Notes under the pieces: generated by a model | What the model saw: only the letters and a program-made list of their open reading frames with translations | Databases searched by the model: none | Told to the model about the DNA's origin: nothing | Position numbers and translations under genes: made by a program | Part shown: one piece after another, positions 29,732-59,853 of the stretch | How positions within the stretch are numbered: the stretch's first letter is position 1 | How the letters are laid out: the number at the start of each line of letters is the position of its first letter | From: a virus | Strand: one strand, 5' to 3' | Virus record (IMG/VR): IMGVR_UViG_3300017752_000004 | Coordinates: 9,135-73,134 of that record | Length of the DNA: 64,000 bases

Positions 29732-30862
29732 TTATTCTAATGCTGTAAAATCTCCATTAGACAACAACAAGCGTCTTGAGTTTTCTAACAACAACAGCCC
29801 ATCAATTTCAGGAAATTGCACTTCGCAGTTATTAATATCAAAATCAAAAGATAGCTCTGAGTTTAATTCTTGGCCAATTGATGAAGAATTGTTTTGTGAT
29901 TTAAACTTAGCTTCGTTTATTTGTATATTGAATGCTTCATTGCTATAGTTTTGCCCACTTATATTTAAAGTGTAAGACTCCTCTGAATTTAAAAAATCTT
30001 TTAAGTTCGCTCGAACACCACTAACCTCAAATGTCGAAACTTTATTAGAAAAATTAAAGCTTCCCTTGTTGGGGTATGTAGCTTTTCTTATTATTGGGTA
30101 TCTCTTGCCTATTCCGTAAATAGTTTTTCTATTAATCGGCAGGTCTAGACTAAAATCTTGAATACAGTCGGATTCAATTAAAAAATTTCCAACAGAGCTG
30201 TTGCCGCTAATCAAAACATTGGTTGAATAATATGGTATAATATTATCGATTTCACTCAAATAGTAGTCGCCCATTTCGGAAAACTGAACAGTCCCACTTT
30301 GCAATTGATTTCCTGTTAGGTTTATTGCTGGAGAATGCCCGCTGAAAATATTATTATCCTGCACCAACTCCTGGGCCTGAACATTACTTCCAACAAAAGA
30401 ATATGCTGAATTTATTATTCCATTAACAGATTGAGACATGGAGATGTTATCTAAAAAACAATTTCCAAAACCGATAACAGTCTTTCCAGATAAGTTTGCA
30501 TAAGAAGCGTCAACTCCTCTCTGATCACCAATCACTGCATAAAAATTTCTGTCTAAATCAAGATTGTTTTTTACTCCACTTGAAGAAAACACAGAAGAGA
30601 ACAAATCTCCAAAATTTTCTATAGCATTGACTGTAAGATTTACGTCTGGAGCATTTTTGATAGATTGGTTTACGAAACCCTTTGTCCCTAGCGCGGCTAC
30701 GTCTGTCCTTTGAATATCAAAAGAAAAATCCACGCCCTGCACTAAAGGCAAAAATGAAATATTGCTACCACTATTTGATTCAGCTCCGCAAGCGGGCGTA
30801 CTGCTCTGCAAAAGGGCAATATTTTCATAAGTTATTATCGGTCTATTTATATTTATAGGCAT
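29732..30862 (-). CDS. Tail-tube-like protein (paralog of 44032..45162)
   Basis: VQGVDFSFDIQRTDVAALG vs VQSANYSFNITRQDINQFG; FGNCFL vs IGNAFL; SSSIG in both. Confidence 0.65.
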   Translation of the reverse strand: MPININRPIITYENIALLQSSTPACGAESNSGSNISFLPLVQGVDFSFDIQRTDVAALGTKGFVNQSIKNAPDVNLTVNAIENFGDLFSSVFSSSGVKNNLDLDRNFYAVIGDQRGVDASYANLSGKTVIGFGNCFLDNISMSQSVNGIINSAYSFVGSNVQAQELVQDNNIFSGHSPAINLTGNQLQSGTVQFSEMGDYYLSEIDNIIPYYSTNVLISGNSSVGNFLIESDCIQDFSLDLPINRKTIYGIGKRYPIIRKATYPNKGSFNFSNKVSTFEVSGVRANLKDFLNSEESYTLNISGQNYSNEAFNIQINEAKFKSQNNSSSIGQELNSELSFDFDINNCEVQFPEIDGLLLLENSRRLLLSNGDFTALE

Positions 30863-30870
30863 AATTGTAT

Positions 30871-33800
30871 TTACGCAGGGCCTCCATCAAAAATGGTCCA
30901 TAAATCGCCTGTATTGAGATTTGTTCTGGCCGCCTCTGCGGCTCCACCAGCCGTGTATAAGCTACCTCCAAAACTAACGTTACTCATTGAGCTCCTTACG
31001 CTCTGAGCGTCCCACGCTATCAGCAAAGAATCATAGCGGGATGTAGGTAGAGTCACGCCTCTGCAAAAATATCCCAGTCCATATATTGAGTCAAGAGCCT
31101 CTATATTGAATTGATCTACACCAATTATATCGCTTAAGCTACTGCAACCATCAAACATTCCATACATATCGGTAGCAGACGATGTGTCAAAACTCGACAC
31201 ATCTAAACCTGTTAAACTATTACAATCCTCAAACATTCGATTCATATCAGTAGCAGACGATGTGTTAAAATTAGATACATCTAAACTTGTTAAGTCGTAG
31301 CACCTGTTAAACATTGAGCCTAGATCAACAACGGAAGAAGTGTCAAAATTAGACGAATCTAAACCTGTTAAGCTGCGGCAATCATCAAACATTCGACCCA
31401 TTCTAGTGACCGAGGAAGTGTCAAAACTAGACAAATCCAAACTTGTTAAGTCAGTACAATTTCTAAACATGCTGGTTGTTTCTGTAAGCAAAGGGGTGTT
31501 GAAGTTGGATAGATCTACACTAGTTAAGTCGTAACATCGATAAAACATCAAAGATGTGTCAAGAACAGAAGACCCATCAAAATTAGACAAATCTAAACCC
31601 GTTAAATCAGAACAATTCTGAAATACTCCATACATATTGATTACCAAGGAAGTGTTAAAATTAGATACATCTAGACTTGTTAAGCTGTGGCAATTTTCAA
31701 ACATTTGATACATGATGGTGACCGAGGAAGTGTCAAAACTCGACAAATCTAAACTTGTTAATTCGCGGCAATCTCTAAACATTTGTTGCATATCGGTAGC
31801 AGACGATGTGTCAAAACTCGACACATCTAAACCTGTTAAACTATTACAATCTTCAAACATTCGATTCATATCAGTAGCAGACGATGTGTTAAAATTAGAT
31901 ACATCTAAACTTGTTAAGTCAAAGCACCTGTTAAACATTGCGCTTAGATTAATAACAGAAGAAGCGTCAAAATTAGACAAATCCAAACCTGTTAATTTAT
32001 AGCAGTTTCTAAACATTTCATACATGCTAGTGACCGAGGAAGTGTCAAAACTAGACAAATCCAAACTTGTTAAATCATAGCAATATCCAAACATTCCGCC
32101 TAGATCAACAACGGAAGAAGTGTCAAAACTAGACAAATCTAAACCCGTTAAATCATAGCAACTGTTAAACATTCCACCTAGATCAACAACGGAAGAAGTG
32201 TCCAAATTAGACAAATCCAAACCTGTTAAGTTAGAGCAGCTTCTAAACATTTCATACATGTCAGTGACCGAGGAAGTGTCAAAACTAGACAAATCCAAAC
32301 TTGTTAAGTCGCGGCAATTTTCAAACATTTGTTGCGTACCAGTAGCAGACGATGTGTCAAAATTAGACAAATCTAAACCTGTTAAGCTATAGCAACTGTT
32401 AAACATTCCTCCTAGATCAACAACAGAAGAAGTGTCCAAATTAGATACATCTAGACCTGCTAAGCTAGAGCAGTTTCTAAACATTTCATACATGCTAGTG
32501 ACCGAGGAAGTGTCAAAACTAGACAAATCTAAACCCGTTAAATCATAGCAATATCCAAACATTCCGCCTAGATCAACAACGGAAGAAGTGTCCAAATTAG
32601 ATACATCTAGACCTGCTAAGCTAGAGCAGCTTCTAAACATTTCATACATGCTGGTAACCGAGGAAGTGTCAAAATTAGACAAATCCAAACCTGTTAAGTC
32701 GGAGCAACTGTTAAACATTCCGCCTAGATCAACAACGGAAGAAGTGTCCAAATTAGATACATCTAGACCTGTTAAGTTGCGGCAATCTTCAAACATTCGA
32801 TTCATATCAGTAGCAGACGATGTGTTGAAATTAGATACATCTAAACTTGTTAAGTCGTAGCACCTGTTAAACATTGCGCCTAGATTAATAACAGAAGAAG
32901 TGTCAAAATTAGACAAATCCAAACCTGTTAAGTTAGAGCAGTTGCTAAACATTTCATACATGCCAGTGACCGAGGAAGTGTTAAAATTAGATAAATCTAA
33001 ACTTGTTAAGCTGGAGCAATTGCTAAACATTTGTTGCATATCCATAACCGAAGATACATCAAAATTAGAAACATTTAACCCTGTTGACGCAGAAGAGCAA
33101 GAATCAAACATAGAACGCATACCAGTTACAGAAGATGTATCAAAACTAGACAAATCCAGATCAACTACACTATAGCAGCCGCTAAACATACAATTCATGT
33201 CAACAGAAGAAGAAGTGTTTAATTTAGAAAAATCTGTGTTTTGGCTATCTAATGACTGACAGTTCCTAAACATATTCTGCATACCAGTAACGCCAGAAGA
33301 AGTTAATCCAGCCATGTCTAGCCCCGTTAAATTGACACAATCCCGAAACATTCCATCCATGTTGGTTACCAAGGAAGTATTTGTGTTTCCCGCCCTGAAA
33401 CTAACCATATTGGTCCATCCATAAAAAGCCTCGCTCAGATCACCCCAACCTACATCACCAAGCTGATTGACTGACGTAACCTTTTCCTTATGACCTAAAA
33501 TAGGTAGGCTAATATTTGGTATGTAGCCGCCTACCGTTATGTTGTAATTTCCAGTGGTTGCGTATACATGTCTCATCTCAGGGTCGTTATACCCAGTAAT
33601 AATGCTTGTCTGTCCATCTCCCCACCCAATCCTTACATTATTTCCACTTTCATTTTCCCCAGAAATTTGTATTAGCTGATTGTTAACCGTAGTCAATACA
33701 TTCATAGAGAATCTATTTTTTTCGAGATTTGCTCTATAATTATCAAAAAGATCAGGTTTTTTAAATAAAAATATTTCATCAAGAGTCAACTCTAAGTCAT

Positions 33801-34779
33801 TGCAATCCTTATATACAAATTTATGATCCAAAGATTTTATTACAAAAAATTTCTTCTTATTATACAACTGGGGTAGGGTTAACTCAAAAGGTCTGTAATC
33901 TTCATGTTTTTCCATAAAGTGTATAATTGACCTAACCTCTTTGTTCGATCTATTCTTCAAAGATAAAGACAAATCCTTTATCAATCCGCCGTTTTGATCC
34001 TGCTTAATAAAAGAAGAAAAAGAGTCCTTTATCTCAAAAATATTAATTGACCTATCTGACCCTATAGATATATCATCATCTATTTCATAAAAAAAAGATC
34101 TCGACCATGCTGAGCCTGACCCAGTAGGGCTGTTTTCTGATTCGGATGCATGACCAGAGTTGCAGTAGTAAAAGTTTTCTCTTCTGTCTGCTATTTTATA
34201 ATAACTTCCAGTTTCAAAATAATCAGAATTTTGTTCGACATATCCTGAGTAGTAAATTACATCGAATTCCTTGTAATCAATCCCAGTTTCCCATTCCGAA
34301 TAAAAATTTGCAGTATTTAAATAAGAAGATCCTCTCCAATTAAATAATGATGAGTATCCATTTTTTAATAAATTTAAATCTATATCAAAAAGGCCGTTAT
34401 GAAATTTAAAGTCATAATCTTGTATTAATAACTCGTCTATGTTTTTGTATATAGACCCAGTTGGGAAAGCTATCTCTACTCCACTAGAACCTGTTGTATT
34501 AAAATTAAAATCGCCATCACTAGAAGCTAGAGTTTCTTCTATAAAATGCAAAAACGACCTAGCCTCATCCTCTGTTTTGTTGGAGAACTTTAAATTAAAT
34601 TTTAAATTAGTTCCGTTTACGCCTTTTGAGAATTTTTTGTAATAATTATCCGCTGTGTTAAAATGAACGTTTTTATTTTCGAAAGATACTTTTGATCCAT
34701 ATTCTGGTACAAAAGTAAATGGCAAAACAGGACCGTCTATATTGTGGTCTCTATCGTATCTGTTTGTAGATTGACTCAT
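30871..34779 (-). CDS. Minor tail protein fused to a PKD-like domain and a BspA/DUF285-type LRR array
   Basis: Follows the tape measure; IGWGDG PKD-like motif; about 29 repeats of LTxLDxSxFDTSSVxxMxxMFxxC. Confidence 0.8.
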   Translation of the reverse strand: MSQSTNRYDRDHNIDGPVLPFTFVPEYGSKVSFENKNVHFNTADNYYKKFSKGVNGTNLKFNLKFSNKTEDEARSFLHFIEETLASSDGDFNFNTTGSSGVEIAFPTGSIYKNIDELLIQDYDFKFHNGLFDIDLNLLKNGYSSLFNWRGSSYLNTANFYSEWETGIDYKEFDVIYYSGYVEQNSDYFETGSYYKIADRRENFYYCNSGHASESENSPTGSGSAWSRSFFYEIDDDISIGSDRSINIFEIKDSFSSFIKQDQNGGLIKDLSLSLKNRSNKEVRSIIHFMEKHEDYRPFELTLPQLYNKKKFFVIKSLDHKFVYKDCNDLELTLDEIFLFKKPDLFDNYRANLEKNRFSMNVLTTVNNQLIQISGENESGNNVRIGWGDGQTSIITGYNDPEMRHVYATTGNYNITVGGYIPNISLPILGHKEKVTSVNQLGDVGWGDLSEAFYGWTNMVSFRAGNTNTSLVTNMDGMFRDCVNLTGLDMAGLTSSGVTGMQNMFRNCQSLDSQNTDFSKLNTSSSVDMNCMFSGCYSVVDLDLSSFDTSSVTGMRSMFDSCSSASTGLNVSNFDVSSVMDMQQMFSNCSSLTSLDLSNFNTSSVTGMYEMFSNCSNLTGLDLSNFDTSSVINLGAMFNRCYDLTSLDVSNFNTSSATDMNRMFEDCRNLTGLDVSNLDTSSVVDLGGMFNSCSDLTGLDLSNFDTSSVTSMYEMFRSCSSLAGLDVSNLDTSSVVDLGGMFGYCYDLTGLDLSSFDTSSVTSMYEMFRNCSSLAGLDVSNLDTSSVVDLGGMFNSCYSLTGLDLSNFDTSSATGTQQMFENCRDLTSLDLSSFDTSSVTDMYEMFRSCSNLTGLDLSNLDTSSVVDLGGMFNSCYDLTGLDLSSFDTSSVVDLGGMFGYCYDLTSLDLSSFDTSSVTSMYEMFRNCYKLTGLDLSNFDASSVINLSAMFNRCFDLTSLDVSNFNTSSATDMNRMFEDCNSLTGLDVSSFDTSSATDMQQMFRDCRELTSLDLSSFDTSSVTIMYQMFENCHSLTSLDVSNFNTSLVINMYGVFQNCSDLTGLDLSNFDGSSVLDTSLMFYRCYDLTSVDLSNFNTPLLTETTSMFRNCTDLTSLDLSSFDTSSVTRMGRMFDDCRSLTGLDSSNFDTSSVVDLGSMFNRCYDLTSLDVSNFNTSSATDMNRMFEDCNSLTGLDVSSFDTSSATDMYGMFDGCSSLSDIIGVDQFNIEALDSIYGLGYFCRGVTLPTSRYDSLLIAWDAQSVRSSMSNVSFGGSLYTAGGAAEAARTNLNTGDLWTIFDGGPA
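31140..33400 (-). repeat. Coding tandem repeat, about 29 units of about 78 nt
   Basis: 29 MFxxC-type motifs at about 26-aa spacing; near-identical DNA blocks at 31168-31296 and 31792-31920. Confidence 0.9.
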
Positions 34780-37700
34780 TTATTTTTTATATAAGTAGTT
34801 TAATGTCCCGCCAGTTCTGGATTCCTCTTGAACAACCGTGGTAACCGCTGCCTTGACTTTCTGCGCAAAATCGCGCTGTTGGTCGTCATCGCCTTTTTCG
34901 CCCGCTTGCTCTGCCTTGCCACCTTGAATATTAAAAGTAAAGTCAGAAGTGTTTGTGACCTGAGATGCAGAATTGGACGCAGTCCCAGCCTCGACAGAAA
35001 CAGGGCTAACAACGCCACCGTTCTGAAATCCTCGCATTGGCATAACGCCCTCATTTATGCTTGATAAAAAACCAGATCCATATTTCTCGACCGCAGATTT
35101 TTTCATAACAAATTCCCCAGGAGTTAACATAGCTGGTATGGTATCGGTTGGGCCAACTGATCCGCCATTAGCAAATCCCACTGGACCTCCATTTGCAAAA
35201 CCAAAACCAAAAGCACTTAATGCCATCTTAGCAATTCCGCCAATTCCCCCGCCGCCGCCGCTATCTCCAGAGAAGAAGCTGCCCAAATTAGTGGTAAGTC
35301 CTTTAAAAATAGTACCAAGCCCATCTTTTAATTTTCCAAACAAATCGCCAAATGTGGTTTTCAACCCTCTAAAAGATTCCATCAGGGTGTCTTTGAGTTT
35401 TGAAAAAATTCCTTCGCCCTTTCCTTCTCCAGCTAAAGCATCAACTGGATTAGTGGCCGAAGCAGAGCTTACTGTATATATTGGATTGCCAGCAGTGCCA
35501 TCTGGAGAAGCTGCGCCGCTTTTGCCTCCAAACAGGCTTTTTACTCCTCCTAATATACCGCCGTCTGATTCTGCAGACCCGCCACCAAACAAGCCTCCTT
35601 TGCCTTCCGAACTCCCAAACAATGCAGATGTAGCTTGGTCTGCTGCTTGCTGCAAAAATGCATCTTTTATAAACCCTAAAAAGTTTCTTCCAGCATCGGA
35701 CAAAGCCTCATCTAAAGTTTTTGCCTGGCTGACCGCTTCCTGAAGAGCTGACCCCAAGTTGCTAGAAAATTGTGCTGGTATATTTTCGCCCAACTCATCA
35801 CGAAAGAAAGCTATATCGTTCTCTAAATTACCAAGACCCTTCCTTATTCCTCCGCCAAATCCTTGCGGTTTACTAAGGTCATTTATTTTCTGTTGTAATT
35901 TTACTTCTTCGAGCTTGTTGTCCAATATTTTCTCTTGAATTAATGCCTTCTCTACAGCGAGGTCAAAATCTATTTTGGCGTCTTTAGTTAGTTCTATGCC
36001 AGCTTCGACAAGCCCCTTTTCAATTAAAAGTAAGCTAGATCCTGCCTCAACCTGGCCCTCTATAAATTCTTTCTGCTCTTCAGAAAAAATAGTAGCATCT
36101 CTGATTGATTTTACGTAGTCTTCTGTGATTCTGAATTCTTCTTTAGCTTTTTCTACGAGAAATTTCTTTAAAGCTATCTCATTTTCTAGACCTACTTTTC
36201 TTATTGTTGTGGCAGCTTCAGCTAAATCAAGTTCTTTGTTTCTTATCTCGGATAAAGCTCCGCTTTGAAATATAGTCTCTATTTGTCCAGTCTTCGTAGA
36301 TTCTAACTGCTTTGTTGTATCAAACCCACCAGCCGCAAATCTTCCTTGACCTAATCTGTCTTTAAAATCTTTTTTTGCCTTACCTCCTGTAAAAGCGCCT
36401 TCGCCAAAACCAGCTGCAACTTTTAGCGCTGTATCGGCGGCTTTTTCGGCGGCGGCATCAATAAGATCAATCGCCTTGATCATGTTTTCGGCAAACAGAT
36501 CCGCATCAAACTGCTTGACGGTTTCGGTTTTGATTTGTATTCCAGTTCCTGTCCTAATTTTTACGTCTTTTTGACTCGCGTTTACTATGTCTTGCAAAGC
36601 GTTTTTGTCTCCAACCTTTGCCAAAGACGCACTTAATGTGCTTTTATCTTTTATGCCGCCAAAAAACCCTTTATTAATTCCAGTTAATCCACCTAACTGT
36701 TCTTCGAGCAAGTCTTCTATACTTTTCTTTTTATCCTCCTCAATGCCTAATTTTTCTTTAAGCTCTGCTTGTTTCTGAGCCGCCTTTAAGTCGGCGACAA
36801 ATGCCGACCTTAAAGCTGAGGAAGCTTCTTTTGACCCAGACGACAATTCTCCCAGATCAATATTTTTGAGTTCTTCGTTTAGTTTTTCAAATCCTGTTTT
36901 TGTTTTTGTTAACTCTAAAACTAATGGAGCTAAGACAGTGCCAATTGCAACTGCAGTACCGATGCCAGGAAGCGCACCACCAACTCCAGCTATACCTCTG
37001 CCTAATTTACCTTTAGCTCCTACGAGTTTACCCTCTGAGTATTTCATTGGATTCCCCGTCTTCGGACTACGATATGTAGCCAACTCTACTCCAAAGCTAC
37101 TCAACTTAGCCCCAATCTTTTCCACTGGCCCTTTCAATAAAGTGAGCGAGGTTAGAGCAGAAGCAGCAAAAGCTATTTCACTAATAAATTTGCCAATACC
37201 ACCTTCTGCAGTACTGAACGCACTGCTCAAGAAATAAAGCCCAGTAGAAGCAGCTAAAATCCCACCACCAAGGCCCCCATCAGAAGAACCTCCTGGCGTT
37301 GCTGGCGTCGATCTTCCTCCAGAAGCGAAATTTGGAATAGCCCCAGTTGGCTCATCTCTGGTATTTGTAACAGCAAGACCCATTGGGTTTTGCGAGTTAC
37401 GTAGTTTGCCGCTTTGATTAATTCTTATTTGGTTTATTGGAAGACCAGCAGCTTGCTCTCTTGCGACTGCTTCGTCTAAAGCTCCGCCAGCAAAATTTGG
37501 GATATAACCTCCAGCAGCGTTACCTGTGTCCTTCAACACCTTATCAAACATGCTCTTTTTGCTGTCTGGACTGAGTCTTATCTTAGCTTCTATTTGTGTG
37601 GCTTTTCCCAATTGTGGAAAAAGTTTTTTTAATTGCGAATTTGCATTACTTCCAGAAAAATCAAAAGCAGCAATTTCGGACCTTGAATCAAAATCCTTTG

Positions 37701-40041
37701 AAGATAATAAAGAGCTGACCGCTGTTTCAAAAATAGTTCCAGACAAAGCTGATATTGCTCCAGAATTTGCTAATTTTAAAATTTTATCTGCTTTAGGTGG
37801 GCCGCCCATTAGTTTTGCCTGTTGATTTGCTAAACCCAATGCAAATTTTCTAGTAGATTGATCTAACTGCTCGTCATTTTTAACCCTAGAATCAACACCA
37901 GGCTCATAGCCAACCAGATCAAAAGCTACTTTCTTGCCTTTTCTGATTCCTTGTATTTGTTGCTTAGGCCCCAAAACTTGTGGAACTACCATAGCAAAAC
38001 GAGGATTGTATATAAGTTTTTGAGAAGATTTTTGTTTTTCTCTTTTTTCTAATTCTGATTTAGCTGCAAGAGCTTCTGGACCCCGACCCTTTGCTATACC
38101 CCTCAACCTTTCCAAGCTTCTTGGTGCAGCAAAATTCGGAATAAACCCACCAGCAGCATTCAACTTCTTAGCTCCAGCAGGAAGACCCATAGTCTTAACC
38201 ATATCCTGATTAAATATAGCATCTCCACCTCCAGCGTAATTTGGCACAACGTATTCGCTGGTATTAGCAACCATCGTCCCGCGCTTGCCGCCACCAAAAG
38301 CAAAATTAGGAATTGAAACAACCTTAGCGCTGGACGGTGCGCCACCCACCCCGCGAGAAACATCATTGGCTTCTGCAGCTATGTATCCACCAGCAGCTCT
38401 TTTCCCCTTCGGAGCAACGCCCTCAGATCCTCCCCTTAGCCCAGCGCCAAACAATCCAGGAGTCACTACTGCTGCAGCTTTTTGAACTCTAGCTAAAGCG
38501 GCAGCTTGTTGATTATAAATTTTTAAAAGTAATTGTTCTTGGGCAACCTTATTACCCTCAAGAGCTAAAATCTCTCTTTGGATACTTTCGTTTTGAAAAA
38601 GAGTCTGCAAAACAGATTGTTGCAAAGCATTCTGTTGCTGCACTGACTTATTAATACCAAGCAAACTAGCCAGAGAAGATGCGCCAAATTTAGCTAAGTC
38701 TACAAATAGTTTTATAAATATACCGCCAATAAGAGCCAGACCAGGTACTGTTAAAACCCCACCGATTCCCCTAACTATGCCTTGGGCAAACTTAGCACCA
38801 AGAGATTCTCCTTGTAAAAGGTCAGTGATTCCGTTGACAACAGAACTAAAAAATTCCAGTATATCCCCTACTTTGTCTGTAAAACCAAGTTCACCCAAAA
38901 CGGACGCTAACTTTTGCCCACCTACAACCAAGTTATTTATTAAGGCTTCCAGGGTTTGATTGAGTGAGCTGTTTTTCGAATCCAATGCTCCAGCAGCGGT
39001 CGCTGAAGTTTGTAAAGCTTTTGTAAATTGGCTTTGGTTTGAATTTAAATCCTCAACCAAACTAATTAAAATATCTCTCTGGCGAACACCAGCGACCTTT
39101 TGAATAATATCCCCAGCCTCAACGCTTTTTAATCCAAGCTTGTTTAGTTCTACAGCTAACTCTTGGAACAGTGGGATAGCTGATTTAACATTGCCCTGAG
39201 CATCCAAAACATTAATACCTAGGTCTTCTAGTGCAACCAGAGTATCTGTCCTACCTAGTCTAGCAAAAATTGTTTTAAACGCATTACCAATAACAGCGCC
39301 ACCACGTTGAGTTCTTTCCTGTACCGTCGTAACAACAGCCAAAAGCTCGTCAAAGGAAACACCAGCTACACGAGCAGATGCCGACGCTCGCTCAAGACCA
39401 TTAATTAAATCTTCAGTAGATACAGCAAATTTTGTATCAACTTCCGATAGCTTGTCGCCAATAGCGGCAACGGTTAAGCCAGCACCTTCGAAACCCTTGA
39501 TAGCTGCAGTTAAACCAGCGACCGCTTGCTCTGAGCTAACCCCAGCGACACGAACAAGCTTCAAGGCTGTCTCTACTCTAGAAAGAGATTCTTCGACACT
39601 CAAGCCTTGACGAGCTAATTCAAGAGCGCCCTCAGCCACATCATCGAATGACGTGGCCGTTTTCTGGGCTACAGCAAAAATGCCATTACCAAATTGCTGT
39701 AATTGTTTTTCAGTGCCGCCAAGAATGGTGTTGATTTTAGCAAAGGTAGCTTCTACTTTAATTGTGTTTGCAACAAGAGCGCCAAATGCTTGAGAAAGCT
39801 TGTTTATGACAGCCACAGAAGCGCCGAAAGCCAAAACACGAGCATTGGAAGCTTCCAAAGATTTTTGGAATTCTGTAGCCTGCCCTGTTATCTTTCCCAA
39901 TGGCCGCGATAGTTTTTCGAGCGATCTGGCTCCACCGCCAAAATCAACACCTTTAGCCTTGGATTGTATTCTAGCCAATGCCGCATCGACCTTGGAAGTC
40001 ACTACTGGATCAAACTCTACTGGTATTCTTGCCTTTGCCAT
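34780..40041 (-). CDS. Tail tape measure protein (TP901-type core)
   Basis: 1753 aa, ELARQG, GNAFKTIFARL, C-terminal FANGG...DTIPAMLTPGEFV. Confidence 0.9.
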   Translation of the reverse strand: MAKARIPVEFDPVVTSKVDAALARIQSKAKGVDFGGGARSLEKLSRPLGKITGQATEFQKSLEASNARVLAFGASVAVINKLSQAFGALVANTIKVEATFAKINTILGGTEKQLQQFGNGIFAVAQKTATSFDDVAEGALELARQGLSVEESLSRVETALKLVRVAGVSSEQAVAGLTAAIKGFEGAGLTVAAIGDKLSEVDTKFAVSTEDLINGLERASASARVAGVSFDELLAVVTTVQERTQRGGAVIGNAFKTIFARLGRTDTLVALEDLGINVLDAQGNVKSAIPLFQELAVELNKLGLKSVEAGDIIQKVAGVRQRDILISLVEDLNSNQSQFTKALQTSATAAGALDSKNSSLNQTLEALINNLVVGGQKLASVLGELGFTDKVGDILEFFSSVVNGITDLLQGESLGAKFAQGIVRGIGGVLTVPGLALIGGIFIKLFVDLAKFGASSLASLLGINKSVQQQNALQQSVLQTLFQNESIQREILALEGNKVAQEQLLLKIYNQQAAALARVQKAAAVVTPGLFGAGLRGGSEGVAPKGKRAAGGYIAAEANDVSRGVGGAPSSAKVVSIPNFAFGGGKRGTMVANTSEYVVPNYAGGGDAIFNQDMVKTMGLPAGAKKLNAAGGFIPNFAAPRSLERLRGIAKGRGPEALAAKSELEKREKQKSSQKLIYNPRFAMVVPQVLGPKQQIQGIRKGKKVAFDLVGYEPGVDSRVKNDEQLDQSTRKFALGLANQQAKLMGGPPKADKILKLANSGAISALSGTIFETAVSSLLSSKDFDSRSEIAAFDFSGSNANSQLKKLFPQLGKATQIEAKIRLSPDSKKSMFDKVLKDTGNAAGGYIPNFAGGALDEAVAREQAAGLPINQIRINQSGKLRNSQNPMGLAVTNTRDEPTGAIPNFASGGRSTPATPGGSSDGGLGGGILAASTGLYFLSSAFSTAEGGIGKFISEIAFAASALTSLTLLKGPVEKIGAKLSSFGVELATYRSPKTGNPMKYSEGKLVGAKGKLGRGIAGVGGALPGIGTAVAIGTVLAPLVLELTKTKTGFEKLNEELKNIDLGELSSGSKEASSALRSAFVADLKAAQKQAELKEKLGIEEDKKKSIEDLLEEQLGGLTGINKGFFGGIKDKSTLSASLAKVGDKNALQDIVNASQKDVKIRTGTGIQIKTETVKQFDADLFAENMIKAIDLIDAAAEKAADTALKVAAGFGEGAFTGGKAKKDFKDRLGQGRFAAGGFDTTKQLESTKTGQIETIFQSGALSEIRNKELDLAEAATTIRKVGLENEIALKKFLVEKAKEEFRITEDYVKSIRDATIFSEEQKEFIEGQVEAGSSLLLIEKGLVEAGIELTKDAKIDFDLAVEKALIQEKILDNKLEEVKLQQKINDLSKPQGFGGGIRKGLGNLENDIAFFRDELGENIPAQFSSNLGSALQEAVSQAKTLDEALSDAGRNFLGFIKDAFLQQAADQATSALFGSSEGKGGLFGGGSAESDGGILGGVKSLFGGKSGAASPDGTAGNPIYTVSSASATNPVDALAGEGKGEGIFSKLKDTLMESFRGLKTTFGDLFGKLKDGLGTIFKGLTTNLGSFFSGDSGGGGGIGGIAKMALSAFGFGFANGGPVGFANGGSVGPTDTIPAMLTPGEFVMKKSAVEKYGSGFLSSINEGVMPMRGFQNGGVVSPVSVEAGTASNSASQVTNTSDFTFNIQGGKAEQAGEKGDDDQQRDFAQKVKAAVTTVVQEESRTGGTLNYLYKK

Positions 40042-41754: not shown

Positions 41755-41757
41755 ATT

Positions 41758-42048: not shown

Positions 42049-42071
42049 AATAATCCTTACCTATGATATGC

Positions 42072-42093
42072 TTTACACTAAAAATAGTGTAAA
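42072..42093. promoter_or_regulatory. Palindromic back-to-back GTGTAA elements at the strand switch
   Basis: TTTACACTA-AAAA-TAGTGTAAA between divergent operons. Confidence 0.7.
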
Positions 42094-42100
42094 AAGAGAT

Positions 42101-47582: not shown

Positions 47583-47601
47583 ATTATTAAATTCCTTTGA
47601 A

Positions 47602-48222
47602 TTAACCAAGCTTAACGACTACATAGTCACCAGCAAATTGATCAGTGAGTCCGCCTTGAGAGACGCGTGAGCCAGTTCCAAGAATGACACCTAGAGAGCT
47701 AGCAGCATTTGCAGCGACTGGACCAATTGTTCCAGCGCCAGCAATTTCAAATCCAGCGCCGACTGTGAATCCAGCGGCAGCGCCTGCTTGAAGAGCGTTT
47801 TTGCTCAGAGTGAAAATACCTTTAGTTACAACAGGAACGCTTTGACCAGGAAGAATAGCTTGAAGCTCCTCTTTTTTTGTTGCGTTATAAAGGAGTTTCT
47901 CTCCATTTTCATCAGCCTTGGCAGTTTGATTCAAAGTGAGTCCTAGAGGAGCATCACCAGAAGCGCATACATTGACTTCGAGAGGGTTAGTTGGGTACAT
48001 ATCGCCGCCAACGAAAGGGTAATCTGTTTTACCAAGATAAGAGTCACTACCATAAGTAATGGTCTCTTGATTAAGATTGCCGTTTGTTACTTTAACGAAA
48101 ACGCCATTGGAACCTGCGCCGTCACCAGTGGTGGACTCAAGAACCGAAGCGGAGTTAAGAGCAAACATATTTACTACGTCATGCTCGTTATATTGTCTGA
48201 ATGGGAGTAATCTTAATGCCAT
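47602..48222 (-). CDS. Probable capsid decoration protein
   Basis: Gly/Ala-rich 206-aa protein between scaffold and capsid genes. Confidence 0.55.
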   Translation of the reverse strand: MALRLLPFRQYNEHDVVNMFALNSASVLESTTGDGAGSNGVFVKVTNGNLNQETITYGSDSYLGKTDYPFVGGDMYPTNPLEVNVCASGDAPLGLTLNQTAKADENGEKLLYNATKKEELQAILPGQSVPVVTKGIFTLSKNALQAGAAAGFTVGAGFEIAGAGTIGPVAANAASSLGVILGTGSRVSQGGLTDQFAGDYVVVKLG

Positions 48223-52058: not shown

Positions 52059-52110
52059 GATGTATTATAAGTTACTTTACACAATTTAAAAGTCACTTTT
52101 TTAACTTTTT

Positions 52111-55100
52111 TTAAATAAACATAGGAGTGAAGCCGTAATTGGTTTCCTCTGGCGTGTCCATCATGTCGTAATATATGTTCATTCCCCAGTTGCCTAATAC
52201 TAGAGCTGAATAAGAATCCTTTCTTGGTCTATCCACCCCCTTCTGTCTTTTTAAGTTGCTTGGTAAATCAAAACTTTGAGTACCGCCATTAGAACTAGAA
52301 ACTTGAATCAAAGCACATTCAGCCTTCGTTAAGTCGATCATGTCTTTCTGGTGTTCGATAAATTCAATCATTTTTGCGCCAGCATTCTTTTCATCTTCGT
52401 ATTTAGAGAATTTTAAATCTTTTATTGGTATTTTTTTAGCTCTCTGCATCGAATAATTGTCATCCATAGCTGTGGCTGCAAAATAAAGTTTTTTCCTATC
52501 GAAAGCGGTCTGCAACATTTCGTTACCATTTCTAATCCAAACAGAAGTTGGTTTTCTTAAGTAACAAATAGTTTTATTTGATACATTATAACCTCTCCTC
52601 GCCTCTTTTAGATCTTTTACATAATCATGCGGGTTATCTAAACCAGCATCAAACATACCTATTTCTAGTTTATCTTTCTTAAATAAATCGCTTTCGTTAC
52701 AAGAATTCATAAATTGTACGCCGCCGTTATAGTCACCCACAATCATAATTACATTAAAATGATCAATAATGTATTTAAAGTAAGTCATATGCTTTTTTAA
52801 GTTCGTTCCAGGAAGAGCGTAGCTATGTACTACAACGCCTTTTTTCGTTTCTGGTATTAGCTTAATAACCTGCATAGCAAAATCATCAGAAGCTTCAGAT
52901 TCGGACCATGATGGGTCAAACGCTAGTATGTATTCGGAACCCTCTTCTCCCGCTACCTCAACTGCTGGAGATTCACCATCTTCGATAGTGCATTCAGACA
53001 TCTTACTTATCTTGAAATAACCAGCGCTGTCATCTGTAAATTGAGCATTAAACTCTCGATCAATTTGAGACTGACTCATAGTTCCCCTTGCTTGGGTGAT
53101 AAGATTTTCATCATACAAAGCCTTTGGAGCGCAATCATAGCTAAACTGCATAATACATCTTCTGCCTTGGTTTTTAGCACCAGGATTAAAGATCATATTT
53201 TCATAAGCCTGATACATTTTATATAAATATTCAAACTTGTAAGATGCTGACGAAAGCCCTATCATTTTATTAGAAGGCCATTCTGTGCGTTCCTCCTCTG
53301 TCATTTTGCCAGCAGCAATCATAGCATCTTCCGCATCGCTAATTTTTTGTCTTTCTTGTGGGTTTTCTACAACAGCCAAGAAAGGCATAATAACTTCGTT
53401 CAAAACTTTTTCTGGCATAAGCAAAAGCTCATCAACAATGATTCTTTGAAAACGGAAACCACGAAGTTTTTCGCCATCGCCAAGAGGTAGGGCTGTGATT
53501 CTGCTCTTGCCGATCTGCATCGACCACTCATCATTTGATTTGCTAACCTTACCTATACATTGTCTAAATAATTCTGCTTTTTTATCTAGAGATATATCTT
53601 CAATTTTACGGAAAATCATTTTTGATTGCCGAAAAGATTTAGAGATAATACCTATATGAACCCCTTGGTTTAGCATAGCGTCTAGCAAGGCAAAAATACC
53701 CGTAGAAAATGAATTATGATTAACGATTCCATCGCTAATGTAACAATGTTTATTTTCGACAGTGATATCTACCGTTACAGCTTTTGACTCTTCTATAGAT
53801 TCCACTTTGGATAAAAACAAATTATCCTCCAAAACCCATTCCAAGTCTTTTTCTAGTAGTTCGCGGTCAATAGCTTGTTTGATTTTAAGCTTAGACATAT
53901 TAGGCGTAAATACAACACCTTCTTTTGATTTAGCTTTATGTAATTTTGCTAAATAGCACCCTACAAGCGGCAAATACTCACAAGGCTCAAAGGTTTTATT
54001 GTCCAATAATTCTTTTAGCTTGGCTTGTTTTCTATTTATGTTGAATCCAATTCTTTCATAAAATGCTCGGACATCTAAAGAATTTGTTACTCTGACAGAC
54101 CACGCTTTGCGACATTCATGTTCTCCTGTTTGAAATTTGGAAACACCACCCTTAAAACTAATTTTATTAGTTCCAACAATACTGAATTGCAGAAGTAGAT
54201 TGTGAACTTGGTTTGCTAATGTTTTACTCGTGCTTGTGAATCCAATCCTACCAGTAATTGAATTTTTCTTTTTATTTCTTGTTATAGAGGAATAACCATC
54301 AGTGTCAAACAGACCCTTAATTAACTCAGCCAAACATTCCTGAGAATTATCTAATAAAATTTCGGGTATAATTTTTTCATAAGCTAAAACTTTTTTAAAT
54401 CCTAAATGAGTTAGTAAAAAATACAATTCCTTAGAATATAATCTAAAGTCTTTATTATTGCCTATTTTAGACAAATGAATATTTAGTCTTTCAGAAAACT
54501 TTGAAAGAAATGTTTTAGTTTCTTCGTCTATGGATGTTATATTAATGCCGTAAGGTTTTTCTAACATACATCCATCTCCTATAAGCAATCCAAAAAAGTA
54601 GTACCACTCTTTTAAGCTAGGGCCATAAATATTGAGTTCTTTAGGCTTGTTGTTGTTTTTAACATCATTTTGAAATTTAAACCCATCGAATATATTTTTT
54701 TGAATTTTATTAAGACCAAAGTCTTTTCTACACATCAAGTGCTCTCCTTCGGCGATATCCTTAGAGAATTTCCACACCTTTTCCAAGTCCTTTGTTAAAA
54801 CCAAAACTCTGTGATAATCTAATCCCTCTGAAATAAACCCATGCTGAGTAGTTATTTTATATGTCTTGTCTTCATCGTTTACCGTTTTGTTGATAACTTT
54901 TTGAAGGCTGCCATCTTCTGTATAAACCTTATCTCCAATGTTTAAATCTATGATTTTTTTTAATCCCCGCTCTGACCACACTAAAGATTCGTAATGGCTG
55001 CACTTAGACATACCACGCGACCATATACCTAAAAAGTAATCATTCTCCATCATAGCCTTTACAGCCATGTGTTGGAAAGGGAACAATTCAACGCCAGTCA

Positions 55101-55251
55101 TAAGCTCTGTTGTGAATGTAACGTTCTCTTTTAAAAACTTGTACAAGTAATACTTAGCCTTGTTATCCTCAAGATAGCCATCAAGATCTAAAATCTGTTT
55201 ATTTGTATCCTCCCTATCTAGCGGTTTTTGATTTCCCGTATCCCAACTCAT
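52111..55251 (-). CDS. terL: Terminase large subunit, intein-containing
   Basis: LFPFQ, Walker A SRGMSK/S, RGFR, IIVDE, LSSA, AFDPS, RKDSYSA. Confidence 0.92.
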   Translation of the reverse strand: MSWDTGNQKPLDREDTNKQILDLDGYLEDNKAKYYLYKFLKENVTFTTELMTGVELFPFQHMAVKAMMENDYFLGIWSRGMSKCSHYESLVWSERGLKKIIDLNIGDKVYTEDGSLQKVINKTVNDEDKTYKITTQHGFISEGLDYHRVLVLTKDLEKVWKFSKDIAEGEHLMCRKDFGLNKIQKNIFDGFKFQNDVKNNNKPKELNIYGPSLKEWYYFFGLLIGDGCMLEKPYGINITSIDEETKTFLSKFSERLNIHLSKIGNNKDFRLYSKELYFLLTHLGFKKVLAYEKIIPEILLDNSQECLAELIKGLFDTDGYSSITRNKKKNSITGRIGFTSTSKTLANQVHNLLLQFSIVGTNKISFKGGVSKFQTGEHECRKAWSVRVTNSLDVRAFYERIGFNINRKQAKLKELLDNKTFEPCEYLPLVGCYLAKLHKAKSKEGVVFTPNMSKLKIKQAIDRELLEKDLEWVLEDNLFLSKVESIEESKAVTVDITVENKHCYISDGIVNHNSFSTGIFALLDAMLNQGVHIGIISKSFRQSKMIFRKIEDISLDKKAELFRQCIGKVSKSNDEWSMQIGKSRITALPLGDGEKLRGFRFQRIIVDELLLMPEKVLNEVIMPFLAVVENPQERQKISDAEDAMIAAGKMTEEERTEWPSNKMIGLSSASYKFEYLYKMYQAYENMIFNPGAKNQGRRCIMQFSYDCAPKALYDENLITQARGTMSQSQIDREFNAQFTDDSAGYFKISKMSECTIEDGESPAVEVAGEEGSEYILAFDPSWSESEASDDFAMQVIKLIPETKKGVVVHSYALPGTNLKKHMTYFKYIIDHFNVIMIVGDYNGGVQFMNSCNESDLFKKDKLEIGMFDAGLDNPHDYVKDLKEARRGYNVSNKTICYLRKPTSVWIRNGNEMLQTAFDRKKLYFAATAMDDNYSMQRAKKIPIKDLKFSKYEDEKNAGAKMIEFIEHQKDMIDLTKAECALIQVSSSNGGTQSFDLPSNLKRQKGVDRPRKDSYSALVLGNWGMNIYYDMMDTPEETNYGFTPMFI
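53713..55002 (-). mobile_element. Intein (430 aa) with LAGLIDADG endonuclease in the terL Walker A
   Basis: Starts CSHYES, FGLLIGDG, IKGLFDTDG, TVDITV, ends NHN before Ser. Confidence 0.92.
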
Positions 55252-56165: not shown

Positions 56166-57198
56166 CTTCAATTCCAATCCCTAGGACTCTCGCCTTCCAA
56201 GCAGCCATTCCTTCTAGACGCTCGGCTTCTTTTTTGATTACTTGTTTTTGCATTTCAGCTATCTTGACCATGTTTTTTCTTTCTTCTTCTTCTTGGAATA
56301 ATTGGACAATAGCTAAAAACGAAGCTGTATCCTTTTGTTGATTTGCTAAACGCGCACCACGGTCGCCCTGAAGCTTCTTTGTTAAGTTTTCGATGCGAGT
56401 TTCACACTGGTGGTATTCAGAGCTTTTAGCTTTAATAATTTCAGCTAATCTGACTGTCATCTCATCTTGGTCAGCATTATCAAACATTTCGTTTAACTTC
56501 TGCAAATGGCCAGTGATTAATTCTAGATTAATGATTTCCTTAGCCACATTCATATACAGATTTAATTCGTCCGCAGTTAAGTCTGGCTTATCCCAAGTAA
56601 GTCGTATAAATTCCTGCTCAAACAGCTCTTTATCTCTGGGGTTGATATAATTATTAACAATAGCAACAAATCTAGAATTACTAAGATTTATTCGCAACTT
56701 ATCGCAACAAGTGCGCGCTGTTCTAGATAGCTTTCCGTCTTCCAGCCCGAAGCCAGTTGAGTCGTTGATCTTTTTAATTAATCTGGAGATAGCTTGTGGT
56801 GCAATGTAGTTTCCAGAAGAATCTTGGCCTTTTTCTTTTTCCTCTTCTCTTTCTTGGTTGACCAGCTCGTTAATAACACGCCACTCCTTAGATAGCCTCT
56901 TGGTTTTTCTATTGAATATTATATCAGCTATTTCGGACGTATTCATGCCGTCCATCTTGAGTTCTTCGATTTCAGATAATTGCTCTTCTGTAAGATTTAT
57001 GTCTTCCGCCTTATTGTGCTTCGTTGTTTTTGCTTGGTAGCCGTTTTTTGCTAGAAACTTTGTAACCGTACGACCTTCTTTGGATCGCCCATCAAGCTTA
57101 TCATCTTTAAACACAGCTCTCGTTATATTTATGATATTAGGGTCAGACCTAAAACTTTTTAATATTAAATCTTTTTGTTCTTCGGATAAATCTATCAT
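56155..57198 (-). CDS. HTH/coiled-coil protein, possible terminase small subunit
   Basis: GMNTSEIADIIF HTH-like segment, coiled-coil C-terminus, two genes upstream of terL. Confidence 0.4.
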   Translation of the reverse strand: MIDLSEEQKDLILKSFRSDPNIINITRAVFKDDKLDGRSKEGRTVTKFLAKNGYQAKTTKHNKAEDINLTEEQLSEIEELKMDGMNTSEIADIIFNRKTKRLSKEWRVINELVNQEREEEKEKGQDSSGNYIAPQAISRLIKKINDSTGFGLEDGKLSRTARTCCDKLRINLSNSRFVAIVNNYINPRDKELFEQEFIRLTWDKPDLTADELNLYMNVAKEIINLELITGHLQKLNEMFDNADQDEMTVRLAEIIKAKSSEYHQCETRIENLTKKLQGDRGARLANQQKDTASFLAIVQLFQEEEERKNMVKIAEMQKQVIKKEAERLEGMAAWKARVLGIGIEDVL

Positions 57199-57866
57199 AA
57201 TATATCTTTTTCTTCTAAAATTTGCTTAGCCTTAACGTGAAATATTTTCTTTAAGTTTTTGATTTGCTTGTAACCAGCTGACCTTTTCTTTTCGTTTGTT
57301 TTAAACCCCAAATATTTAGCCACCTCTTCGTCGCTTTTATTTTGAACAAACAGCATTTTAAAAGCTTGAAAAAGTCTATCGTTTAAATGCGGCCTCATGG
57401 CGTTAGTTAGTTTTTTTGTAGCCTCTTCTAAATCTAAAAAAGTATCCTGCTTTGATTTCATTTCGCAATAATGATTTTCCATCGTAACAGCAAGTTTGAT
57501 ATCGTATGCTGACTTTTTCTTTTGTTCCCACTGTCTGTATTCCCCGCAACTGCTTTCCTGAATACCGCTTCTTGTTTTTGAGCATCCGTCACTGCCATTG
57601 TTAAATTCGCACCTCAAGCACGGACGCACAAAATTACCATAATGATTACGTAGTAAGTTTTTAAATTGATTAGATACAACCCTATTCAACCAAGGTTCTA
57701 CAGATTTAGACTGATCCCACAAATGCCATTTTTTATATATGTGAGCCATGATGATTTGTTTTATATCATCATAATCTATATAAGCTACGGCATCTAAATC
57801 CCATTTTGATCTTTTTCTTTCTAACGCAACTTCTATCTCTTGTATTTTATCTTCAAAGGAATGCAT
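57195..57866 (-). CDS. Sigma-factor-like protein with a Cys-cluster insertion
   Basis: DDIKQ..HIYKKW, PWLNRVVSNQFKN (region 2-like), CLRC..C..C, SDEEVAKYLG HTH. Confidence 0.7.
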   Translation of the reverse strand: MHSFEDKIQEIEVALERKRSKWDLDAVAYIDYDDIKQIIMAHIYKKWHLWDQSKSVEPWLNRVVSNQFKNLLRNHYGNFVRPCLRCEFNNGSDGCSKTRSGIQESSCGEYRQWEQKKKSAYDIKLAVTMENHYCEMKSKQDTFLDLEEATKKLTNAMRPHLNDRLFQAFKMLFVQNKSDEEVAKYLGFKTNEKKRSAGYKQIKNLKKIFHVKAKQILEEKDIL

Positions 57867-58180: not shown

Positions 58181-58215
58181 ACCCTATGATACAATAAGAT
58201 ATTATTTTTTAAAAT

Positions 58216-58905: not shown

Positions 58906-59028
58906 TCGATATATATTACACTTCAAAAACCTTCATGCTCTGCTAGATGCGTTAAAATACAAAAAATTTAAACTAAAGTATTTGAATATTAGCTGCAGAC
59001 AGACCTGCTTCTGTTATGCAGGCGAAGC

Positions 59029-59853
59029 TTAAGAGGGGTAGTTTGCGGCAATCCCTGTTGGTATATTTAAACCATATCCGACGTAATCTAAAGACACTTG
59101 AATAGTATCTGACGGCGCTGCGCTAATCTTTTGTGATTTTAAGCTAGCGTTTGGCACAGAAAAGCTATTTAAAACAACGCCATTATTATCGATCAAAGAA
59201 AAAGATACATCCCTATTAAATTCTTCGTTCTGCAGCAGTCCTGTCATATTTTCAAACTCCTGCTCTATCATTTCGATATCTGCTGAAGCTGAATACTTTA
59301 TAGGTGTGAGTATTTTAGATGACGAAGATTTCACTGAATCTATCTCATAAGTCGGCCTGGAGTCAAAGTCCACAGAGTAAGAGAATCTAGTGACCGCCGA
59401 TATAGTGTCGTCTAAATTAAAAACAATACTGGTCGGGTCAAAATTTTCTCCAGTATTATCCGTGTATGAAGAATTTAACCTCAACCCTGTGGCGGGCTTT
59501 AAATCCCCATAAATTTTCAAATCCACCGAGAGTGTTGGTATGTCTTGAGAAGCTAAAGAGATCTTATAGTTTGTGATCGTTGCTTGGTCAAAATTCAAAC
59601 CGCCCGTACCATAGATAAATTGCCCAGAAAGATTAGCGTACCCAGTCAGCTCCTGAATAAAATCTCTACCTATGCATTTTTTAGATATAGAGCATGAGGC
59701 TAAGCTAGCCTTGTTTATTTTTCTATTGATACCTCTGTTAGCTAATAACAACACAGCCTCTTCCTCTACTTGATAGTCAAATGAGACATTGGTAATCCCC
59801 GTCAACAGAGTGTCTTGTAAAATAATATTTGTTTCTTCCGAGCCGTTGAACAT
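59029..59853 (-). CDS. Tail-tube-like structural protein (third, more distant paralog)
   Basis: ITNVSFDY, ITNYKIS, IPTLSVDL vs IPTVSVSL in 44032; GTGTAA upstream. Confidence 0.5.
   Translation of the reverse strand: MFNGSEETNIILQDTLLTGITNVSFDYQVEEEAVLLLANRGINRKINKASLASCSISKKCIGRDFIQELTGYANLSGQFIYGTGGLNFDQATITNYKISLASQDIPTLSVDLKIYGDLKPATGLRLNSSYTDNTGENFDPTSIVFNLDDTISAVTRFSYSVDFDSRPTYEIDSVKSSSSKILTPIKYSASADIEMIEQEFENMTGLLQNEEFNRDVSFSLIDNNGVVLNSFSVPNASLKSQKISAAPSDTIQVSLDYVGYGLNIPTGIAANYPS

Follow-up and report, generated by a model that had tools for sequence, protein, structure and literature searches.

A directional Ser/Thr-Gly bias in the tail and neck proteins of a phage family that carries glycosyltransferase genes

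Glycosylation of virion proteins by phage-encoded enzymes has been proven in mycobacteriophages (Che8, Corndog and Myrna), in which the C-terminal ends of capsid and tail tube subunits carry the glycans (Freeman et al. 2023, as cited in PMC12619734). In bacteria, the GT-B enzyme TibC hyper-O-glycosylates an adjacent beta-rich adhesin and grips this substrate with a Cys4 iron finger, and the autotransporter heptosyltransferases (BAHT family) TibC/AAH, which are soluble, attach many O-linked sugars to TibA/AIDA-I, on Ser residues in loops between strands (PMC4358343). The present analysis concerns the dipeptide Ser/Thr-Gly ([ST]G) in the structural proteins of a virus, and the glycosyltransferase (GT) genes near its tail genes, in a stretch of 64,000 nucleotides (the window) that spans bases 9135-73134 of the 73,134-base virus record IMGVR_UViG_3300017752_000004. 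The original prediction for this DNA was that [ST]G is enriched in tail and neck proteins and missing from the capsid protein, and that it may be the acceptor sequon of phage-encoded virion glycosylation.

In this aquatic phage family, Ser/Thr-Gly pairs are about twice as frequent in tail, tail-tip and neck proteins as expected from composition, and less than half as frequent as expected in head proteins. This bias is real, directional and lineage-specific, acts at the protein level, and is opposite in tail and head. As in the mycobacteriophages, the phage encodes its own GTs and structural virion proteins are the proposed targets. The two cases differ in that the capsid is here free of the motif, the tube is hardly enriched, and the candidate sites are internal and distributed across fibre, tail-tip and neck proteins; moreover, mycobacteriophage glycosylation is proven, whereas in this phage it is a prediction from sequence. 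The ends of the Che8 capsid protein (...NKTGS) and tube protein (...SDGS) bear a loose likeness only.

Expected numbers were obtained from shuffles within each protein, and single proteins were subjected to Bonferroni correction for 67 proteins. The earlier hand counts of Gly preceded by Ser or Thr were reproduced exactly (8 of 17 in the protein encoded at 59029..59853, 9 of 28 at 29732..30862, and 5 of 13 at 45315..45758; Table 1), as was the count for the capsid protein, which has 25 Gly and no SG or TG, and the quoted motifs lie where they had been placed. No single protein in the window passes the correction, whereas the pooled tests do. The three proteins just named together contain 22 [ST]G against 10.4 expected, a number reached by 1 of 5000 shuffles. 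Enrichment also persists after correction for composition in seven tail/neck proteins of the window pooled with the 440-aa N-terminus of the protein at 30871..34779 (57 [ST]G against 30.6; 0 of 5000 shuffles), in which the reverse pair, G[ST], occurs about as often as expected (29 against 30.6). The strongest signals come from the same record outside the window, namely from the J fibre and a 297-aa protein (Table 1), and the nine-protein tail set formed by these two and in-window proteins contains 110 [ST]G against 64.0. The count is 10 in head proteins (16.5 expected) and 82 in all remaining proteins (88.5 expected); the non-structural GDP-mannose dehydratase is also enriched (p = 0.006). When all 400 dipeptides of the tail set are ordered by enrichment, TG comes first (50 against 25.2, z = 4.9) and SG third (60 against 38.8, z = 3.4).

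Two possible causes were rejected. Regional clustering of Ser, Thr and Gly does not account for the excess, because shuffles that preserve local composition in segments of 20 or 40 aa leave it unchanged (110 against 64; 0 of 1000) and the reverse pair is flat. A DNA motif is excluded by codon frame: CTGG, the commonest word at [ST]G sites, occurs in one frame in 85 of 89 cases in the tail genes, which places the bias at the protein level.

The distribution within individual proteins follows the original prediction in part. The N-terminus of the distal-tail protein (30871..34779; residues 1-440, non-repeat), which had been called dense in the motif, is indeed enriched (13 against 4.6); this is the part matched by PF05939 and phrog_14, and a homologue that has no leucine-rich repeat (LRR) array, in the relative L003, keeps the excess (12 against 5.1). 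In the LRR array itself (20 against 13.6), the stated frequency of LTGLD was borne out, with 13 copies against 9 of LTSLD, but is inflated by repetition, and that of VTGM was not (3 of 10 VTxM). The tail tube (44032..45162) had likewise been described as dense in [ST]G; it is rich in Ser, Thr and Gly, yet is unenriched (Table 1). Its C-terminal tail is rich in Ser and Thr and contains an invariant FFSG, and the capsid protein has no such tail. Homologues of the tube-like protein at 29732..30862 in L001-L003 have observed/expected values of 11/5.0, 9/5.4 and 8/5.5.

Conservation was examined in 80 viral contigs with tube identities of 41-95%, all from one viral family; homologues of the tube in metagenomes number more than 3900. 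The observed/expected ratio (O/E) of [ST]G is 2.47 in the neck-position family of 42559..43143 (386/156.4 in 73 homologues; G[ST] 0.77), 2.04 in the neck-position family of 43140..43988 (515/252.6 in 75 homologues; G[ST] 1.08), and 2.16 in the connector-position family of 45315..45758 (343/158.8 in 69 homologues; G[ST] 0.43). The tube family is at 1.31 (898/683.2 in 86 homologues; G[ST] 1.03). Head families run below expectation: 0.42 for the capsid (100/238.3 in 61 homologues; G[ST] 1.24), 0.33 for the 516-aa head protein (52/156.3 in 57 homologues; G[ST] 0.70), and 0.25 for the portal (5/20.0 in 8 homologues; G[ST] 1.10). When loci are taken one by one, the three neck families together have an O/E of 1.2-3.0 in 80 of 80 loci, and head proteins one of 0-0.8. 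All 28 sequences of the 297-aa family, which range down to 43% identity, are enriched, with O/E 1.4-3.6. In this family, Ser or Thr before Gly is more conserved than other Ser or Thr (0.82 against 0.55, p = 0.003), and Gly after Ser or Thr is more conserved than other Gly (0.89 against 0.60, p = 0.009).

Extra fibre-like proteins that start with MADKKIS(E/Q)LTELTSA are encoded by two relatives (L007 2788..4744, L009 1..1616). They are rich in Ser, Thr and Gly and have [ST]G below expectation (4/8.8, 5/7.6, 3/4.0, 4/6.2); thus, the bias is not common to every fibre-like protein of these phages.

Agreement of this kind could arise from inheritance together with selective noticing, that is, from a few ancient conserved sites in co-inherited families that are counted repeatedly and have no common cause. 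Three of the proteins first noticed (44032..45162, 29732..30862 and 59029..59853) are paralogues and therefore not independent samples, the LRR array and one type of J C-terminus (that of L023) are internally repeated, all 80 loci belong to a single family, and the motif was picked after the sequence had been read. We nonetheless regard such an origin as improbable, given the ranks of TG and SG among the dipeptides and the flat reverse pair, the agreement of families that are neither repetitive nor paralogous (the three neck families, the gpM/L-like N-terminus, the 297-aa protein and several J C-termini), and the opposite course of the head families.

The explanation that we tentatively prefer, with somewhat less than even confidence, is that the [ST]G excess is mainly a structural motif of strand ends and turns that has been inherited across the phage family. 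A beta-strand would terminate in a hydrophobic residue and then Ser or Thr; the next residue, Gly, would open a tight turn or a Gly-rich loop, and the turn is probably capped by the hydroxyl group of the Ser or Thr. Tail-tip, fibre, tube-like and neck families, which are beta-rich, would use this turn heavily, and the capsid, portal and 516-aa head proteins hardly at all. The neighbouring GTs would then be a separate feature of the family.

This explanation is favoured because the residue before the motif is hydrophobic, the Gly is conserved, and invariant loops recur in poorly exposed neck proteins. Over 109 sites (49 Thr, 60 Ser), position -1 is enriched in Val (2.3-fold), Ile (1.7-fold), Leu (1.6-fold) and Phe (1.5-fold). 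In the neck families, 18-53% of sites fall in one to three nearly invariant columns; in the family of 42559..43143, the invariant sites are Ser-only (NISGTL, GISGLG and SRSG) and lie in conserved Gly-rich loops (alignment A7). The neck families and a tape-measure chaperone family (O/E 1.68 family-wide), none of which is an obvious target at the surface, are enriched. In the capsid family, no site column is conserved. The near-normal tube, which is exposed and abundant and has an O/E of just 1.1-1.3, and the unenriched fibres in some relatives that carry GTs (L035, G014, G003 and G009; described below) are further reasons for the preference. An AlphaFold2 model of the 297-aa protein (mean predicted local distance difference test score 70) has an all-beta fold, in which the sites fall at the ends of strands or in hairpins. 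By VIA-align 2, its middle domain is FN3/Ig-like and its C-terminal domain resembles a phage capsid spike (9ny6_C; Z = 11.2, root-mean-square deviation 2.4 over 93 residues); Foldseek gave no match for the model at an E of 0.001 or better.

Several observations weigh against a structural origin, which offers no reason why about eight unrelated tail/neck families share the same direction. No directional [ST]G excess was found in the tail proteins of seven control phages, and the excess is therefore not general to beta-rich tail proteins: the tail O/E is 1.12 in lambda, 1.19 in T1, 1.00 in Dina (Ralstonia), 0.79 in Pmp14 (Pasteurella), 1.03 in T4 and 1.08 in SPP1, and in the low-GC Flavobacterium phage 11b it is 1.32, with the reverse pair also at 1.32. 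A general property of tail proteins is rejected on this ground, and J proteins of the control phages range from 0.71 to 1.27. Control heads (five major capsid proteins and T4 gp24) are at 1.51 when pooled (32 against 21.2), opposite in direction to the capsids of this family. The sites of the neck families that lie outside the invariant columns are scattered over many rare, variable columns. In J, the excess recurs in C-terminal regions that have no BLAST relation to each other or to the J of the phage studied here (one family has 48/20.4, 19/7.6 and 29/12.4, and another 18/10.7 and 15/9.4); one of these regions is internally repeated, and none of the J C-termini matches a Pfam family at E up to 1. 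Finally, the classic turn pairs are not enriched in the tail set (NG 18 against 27.9, DG 22 against 23.0), and a general beta-turn preference is rejected for this reason.

The shortage of Asn-Gly in tails, next to the surplus of SG and TG, would be expected if some other process read the motif or selected for it: a prohead or environmental protease that cuts [ST]-G and would thereby purge heads of the motif, another modification of Ser/Thr before Gly, or selection for chemical stability, by which deamidation-prone Asn-Gly turns are replaced by Ser/Thr-Gly in long-lived virions. Depletion of the head-module proteins, with no conserved site column, would also fit. A process of this sort is very improbable, however, since a protease accounts for the depletion in heads and not for the enrichment in tails, NG is avoided neither in heads (7 against 8.1) nor in other proteins (51 against 44.3), and Pfam and PHROG scans identified no protease or kinase in the head module.

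The remaining explanation is that hydrophobic-[ST]-G at exposed strand ends is an acceptor motif for phage-encoded, cytoplasmic protein O-glycosylation. The candidate enzymes are the GT1-like protein that carries a Cys4 knuckle, a GT9-like protein and the GT encoded at 27782..28870, with a GDP-perosamine-type pathway as the candidate source of the donor; fibre, tail-tip and perhaps tube-like proteins would be the targets, and heads would have been purged of the motif as sugars would disturb assembly. Such a system, which we hold to be somewhat unlikely, would agree with a directional, lineage-specific excess that the seven controls do not have, with the depletion of head proteins to 0.25-0.42 when control heads are at or above 1, and with the recurrence of the excess in non-homologous J C-termini. 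It also withstood the refuting checks that were applied, as the enrichment outlasts composition correction and is not shared by the tails of the seven controls. Ser and Thr also interchange at site columns, as seen in the family of 43140..43988, and phage virion glycosylation has a precedent in the mycobacteriophages cited above. On the other side, the poorly exposed neck and chaperone families are enriched mostly at invariant loop positions, non-structural proteins show no avoidance of the motif, and in the one described phage case the glycans are on the C-termini of the capsid, which here avoids the motif, and of the tube, which is here barely enriched. The sequon and motif passages of a 2025 review of bacterial O-glycosylation contain no [ST]G sequon, and in the literature searched, which comprised listings and passages, neither an [ST]G acceptor motif nor the glycosylation of phage tail fibres was reported.

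The arrangement of the GT genes bears on this question. An opposite-strand cluster that encodes a GNAT protein, a 252-aa protein, the GT9-like protein, a DUF6165 protein and the GT1-like protein (549..2237) is directed toward the J and 297-aa genes, and the GT1-like/GT9-like cluster converges on these genes in all relatives in which the region is covered. Twelve of the 17 J-like proteins beside the cluster have an O/E of at least 1.5, and three have 1.26-1.33 (L041, L045, G013). The other two, which adjoin the same cluster, are below 1 (L035, 14/20.0 or 0.70; G014, 17/27.2 or 0.63) and thus speak against an acceptor motif; the GT1-like gene of G014 carries stop codons. In G003, the cluster is missing from the syntenic position and the large fibres are close to expectation (74/69.5 and 39/35.9, or 1.02-1.08), which would favour an acceptor motif; the neck, tube-like and gpM/L-like proteins of this relative remain enriched. 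The giant fibres of G009 are unenriched (73/80.1 and 78/92.3, or 0.85-0.91), and the contig ends inside the last fibre gene. The second GT, of the 27782..28870 type, adjoins the tail-tip module in eight relatives (L001, L002, G003, G005, G008, G009, G011, G013); in the phage studied here, two small genes lie between this GT gene and the tail-tip module, which runs toward it. No relative without GTs was found: GT genes are present in 11 of 11 related contigs examined, several of which are fragments, and a comparison with GT-less phages is therefore impossible within the family. The association between GTs and bias thus comes from one lineage, which counts against the acceptor explanation.

The glycan gene sets differ among relatives. 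G003 carries, at 28259..33887, genes of the GT11, GT47 (exostosin-like) and GT2 types and three FkbM-type methyltransferase genes beside GDP-mannose dehydratase, and G004 carries a GT34-like gene. To judge by this comparison of gene content, the variation resembles the turnover of surface-polysaccharide loci, and it counts in favour of the acceptor explanation.

The premise of the original prediction that GT genes are present is sound: two are clear (549..2237 and 27782..28870), and a CAP59-like gene and a GT9-like gene that is cut by the window start are weak candidates. The C-terminal half of the protein at 549..2237 contains an inserted knuckle, CxxC-14-CxxC (C266, C269, C284, C287), which is invariant in 10 of 10 homologues. 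Its C-terminal extension of about 115 aa (GKRIAVVMPGSAGDVLW...) presumably resembles the start of GT9 heptosyltransferases, and the gene next but one matches just the second half of the GT9 model (PF01075, 20.7 bits, below the cut-off of 22; RfaQ, E = 1.9e-5, 23.7 bits against a cut-off of 467). The sugar operon comprises the intein-bearing GDP-mannose 4,6-dehydratase, the 270-aa CAP59-like protein, a GNAT protein, a DegT-type aminotransferase and a SemiSWEET/PQ-loop protein. The perosamine pathway that had been proposed is upheld as regards an operon with dehydratase, DegT aminotransferase and GNAT genes; the exact amino sugar is not settled, as no equivalog model reaches its cut-off. The dehydratase scores 304.8 bits with TIGR01472, below the cut-off of 415, in a gene that is split by an intein, and PF16363 supports its assignment as a dehydratase. 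For the aminotransferase, the best NCBIfam model is of the LegC type and is likewise below its cut-off (322 against 420 bits), which leaves its sugar unsettled. The SemiSWEET/PQ-loop-type membrane protein (85 aa; 20401..20658) is encoded between ThyX and the aminotransferase.

A bacterial parallel is TibC/AAH. As with those enzymes, a GT-B protein with an invariant Cys4 insertion, which recalls the TibC iron finger (PMC4358343), and a GT9-like gene adjoin the genes for beta-rich fibres. The differences are considerable. The Cys4 motif is here in the GT1-like and not in the GT9-like protein, and its metal binding is putative; there is no detectable sequence relation to TibC, and the GT9 matches are below their cut-offs. 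The donor of TibC/AAH is ADP-heptose, whereas the pathway here is of the GDP-mannose/perosamine type, and Pfam and NCBIfam scans turned up no heptose pathway gene. The substrate described there is a beta-helix, whereas the candidate substrates here have FN3-like and spike-like domains. Searches with single sequences and profiles found no match at E up to 1 between these GTs and TibC or any other PDB chain, so a link to a solved protein glycosyltransferase, which would have favoured the acceptor explanation, was not detected.

HMW1C-type N-glycosyltransferases are similar in that a short motif is reused along an adhesin that is modified by a soluble cytoplasmic GT; that system has an N-linkage to Asn at NX[ST] and a GT41-type enzyme, and no such family was found here. 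Ser-Gly is the acceptor of proteoglycan xylosylation, and the original prediction had drawn on this analogy. It does not hold, because Thr is about as frequent as Ser among the 109 sites, a hydrophobic residue occupies position -1, and acidic residues nearby show no more than a mild surplus (up to 1.6-fold, for Asp); in addition, no GT14-type enzyme appeared in Pfam or NCBIfam scans. Chloroviruses and mimiviruses, whose autonomous glycosylation is the subject of PMC4691112, also have their own sugar-nucleotide pathway and several GTs in sets that vary among relatives, but these are giant viruses of eukaryotes in which the capsid or fibrils are proven targets, whereas the capsid here is without the motif.

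In its widest form, the acceptor explanation would describe an abundant family of aquatic tailed phages with an O-glycosylation system that reads hydrophobic-[ST]-G, a variable glycan on fibre and tail-tip proteins, and capsid and portal proteins purged of the motif; we consider this unlikely. If it were true, phage virion glycosylation would extend from mycobacteriophages to a widespread aquatic phage family, as the first case outside actinobacteriophages, with the first acceptor motif for such glycosylation and hence a sequence rule that predicts sites. Tail fibres, not capsids, would be the surface that is shielded or tuned, and this would bear on adsorption, host range, stability and glyco-engineering. 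If the structural explanation holds, the family provides a well-controlled case of a dipeptide bias that spans a lineage, with enrichment in tails and purging from heads; such a bias can mimic an acceptor motif and should be checked for before motif-based claims are made. Under either explanation, the 297-aa protein, which has 13 candidate sites and adjoins the candidate enzymes, offers a concrete test system.

The features discussed are listed in Table 1. For most structural proteins, Pfam and PHROG searches gave no match even at E up to 1, and the neck proteins in addition have no PDB profile match; roles were assigned from gene order, paralogy and look-alikes in the ESM Atlas. The record encodes the J-like central fibre, with a Phage-tail_3 domain, that marks a lambda-type tail tip (PF13550 and phrog_31).

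Table 1. Features of the window and of the adjoining part of the record. Positions are those of the window unless stated otherwise; the last column gives [ST]G observed vs expected.
Feature	Position	Strand	Matches and basis	[ST]G
gpI-like gene	record start, outside window (first 9.1 kb)		phrog_32	
J fibre, 1879 aa	record 461..6100, outside window		PF13550 4.3e-16, phrog_31 8.2e-108, VWA domain	53 vs 32.1
297-aa protein	first 9.1 kb of record, outside window			13 vs 4.5
GT9-like gene, last 54 codons, cut at window start	1..162 (record 8169..9296)	-	PF01075 E=2.8e-4	
GT-B glycosyltransferase (GT1/GT4-type)	549..2237	-	PF00534 27.7 bits (cut-off 26.4); phrog_2170 2.5e-20	
Sugar operon	16002..20658	-	PF16363 1.2e-97, PF01041 3.5e-101, PF00583, PF04193	
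270-aa protein, weak CAP59 mannosyltransferase match	18088..18900	-	PF11735 E=0.0027, below cut-off	
Second glycosyltransferase	27782..28870	+	phrog_2170 1e-14, phrog_4356	
Tail-tube-like paralogue, end of tail-tip module	29732..30862	-	BLASTP to 44032..45162 E=2e-11	9 vs 4.63, p=0.025
Distal-tail protein: gpM/gpL-like N-terminus, weak PKD, DUF285/BspA-type LRR array	30871..34779	-	PF03382, PF13306, PF05939, phrog_14	
Tape measure protein	34780..40041	-	PF10145 and many tape-measure PHROGs	23 vs 28.7, not enriched
Neck-position gene, no known family	42068..42559	+	role from gene order	2 vs 1.9; family 0.82
Neck-position gene, no known family	42559..43143	+		6 of 13 Gly, expected 1.85, p=0.004
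Neck/tail-terminator-position gene, no known family	43140..43988	+		5 vs 3.66
Probable major tail tube	44032..45162	+	Phage_tube_2 and Phi812-tube look-alikes (ESM Atlas); weak phrog_365, PF09393	9 vs 8.17, z=0.35; homologues O/E about 1.2-1.3
Small protein, head-tail connector position (FSGVSGDVSG)	45315..45758	-		5 vs 2.38, p=0.066
Probable major capsid protein	46491..47609	-	Mu GpT and Phage_capsid_4 look-alikes (ESM Atlas)	0 vs 3.38, lower-tail p=0.022
516-aa head-module protein, no known family	48246..49796	-		1 vs 3.3, depleted
Second tube-like paralogue, adjoins phoH, away from tail module	59029..59853	-	BLASTP to 44032..45162 E=4e-6	8 vs 3.37, p=0.011

The record is a fragment that begins within the gpI-like gene; 3.1 kb that are present upstream in a close relative are missing, as are the gpL-like and neighbouring genes that lie upstream in relatives. 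Complete relatives are 120-194 kb long (those rated complete by CheckV, 140 and 194 kb). The window contains a replication module (DnaE-type polymerase, DnaB, primase, RecA-like protein, ribonucleotide reductase, ThyX and SSB), an intein-bearing terminase, the tape measure protein, and the DUF285/LRR protein with its gpM/L-like N-terminus. No cultured relative was matched in a phage collection by either DNA or capsid protein, and the match of J in that collection is confined to its conserved middle part.

Tube-like paralogues occur at three sites, namely beside the neck genes, at the end of the tail-tip module and next to phoH, and relatives share this set of three, some with additional copies. 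Inteins with LAGLIDADG-type endonuclease domains are present in the GDP-mannose 4,6-dehydratase (16002..18086) and the large terminase (52111..55251). Two small proteins (26771..27385 and 57195..57866) match sigma-70 region 2, one weakly (E = 9.5e-4) and the other at 1.2e-6; on the basis of these matches, they may be phage sigma factors for middle and late genes.

Codons at the [ST]G sites mostly end in T (ACT and TCT), and ACC, TCC and TCA never precede GGN. ACC-GGN and TCC-GGN are lacking because the 73-kb record contains no CCGG at all, where about 141 would be expected over both strands. CCGG is likewise missing from the DNA retrieved for ten related contigs (G002-G009, G011 and G014; 36-120 kb each), with G013 as an exception (19 CCGG in 60 kb), and from these word counts its absence looks like family-wide avoidance of a restriction system that cuts CCGG. 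GGCC, CATG and several 6-base palindromes (CCATGG, GGCGCC and GGATCC at 0) are also low in the record. In the nine tail proteins, TCA for Ser is followed by a Gly codon in 0 of 82 cases, though TCAGG occurs 62 times in the record on both strands, and ACA-GGN is rare (11 of 102). The scarcity of TCA-Gly and ACA-Gly may reflect avoidance of AGG, or Shine-Dalgarno-like words, in late genes.

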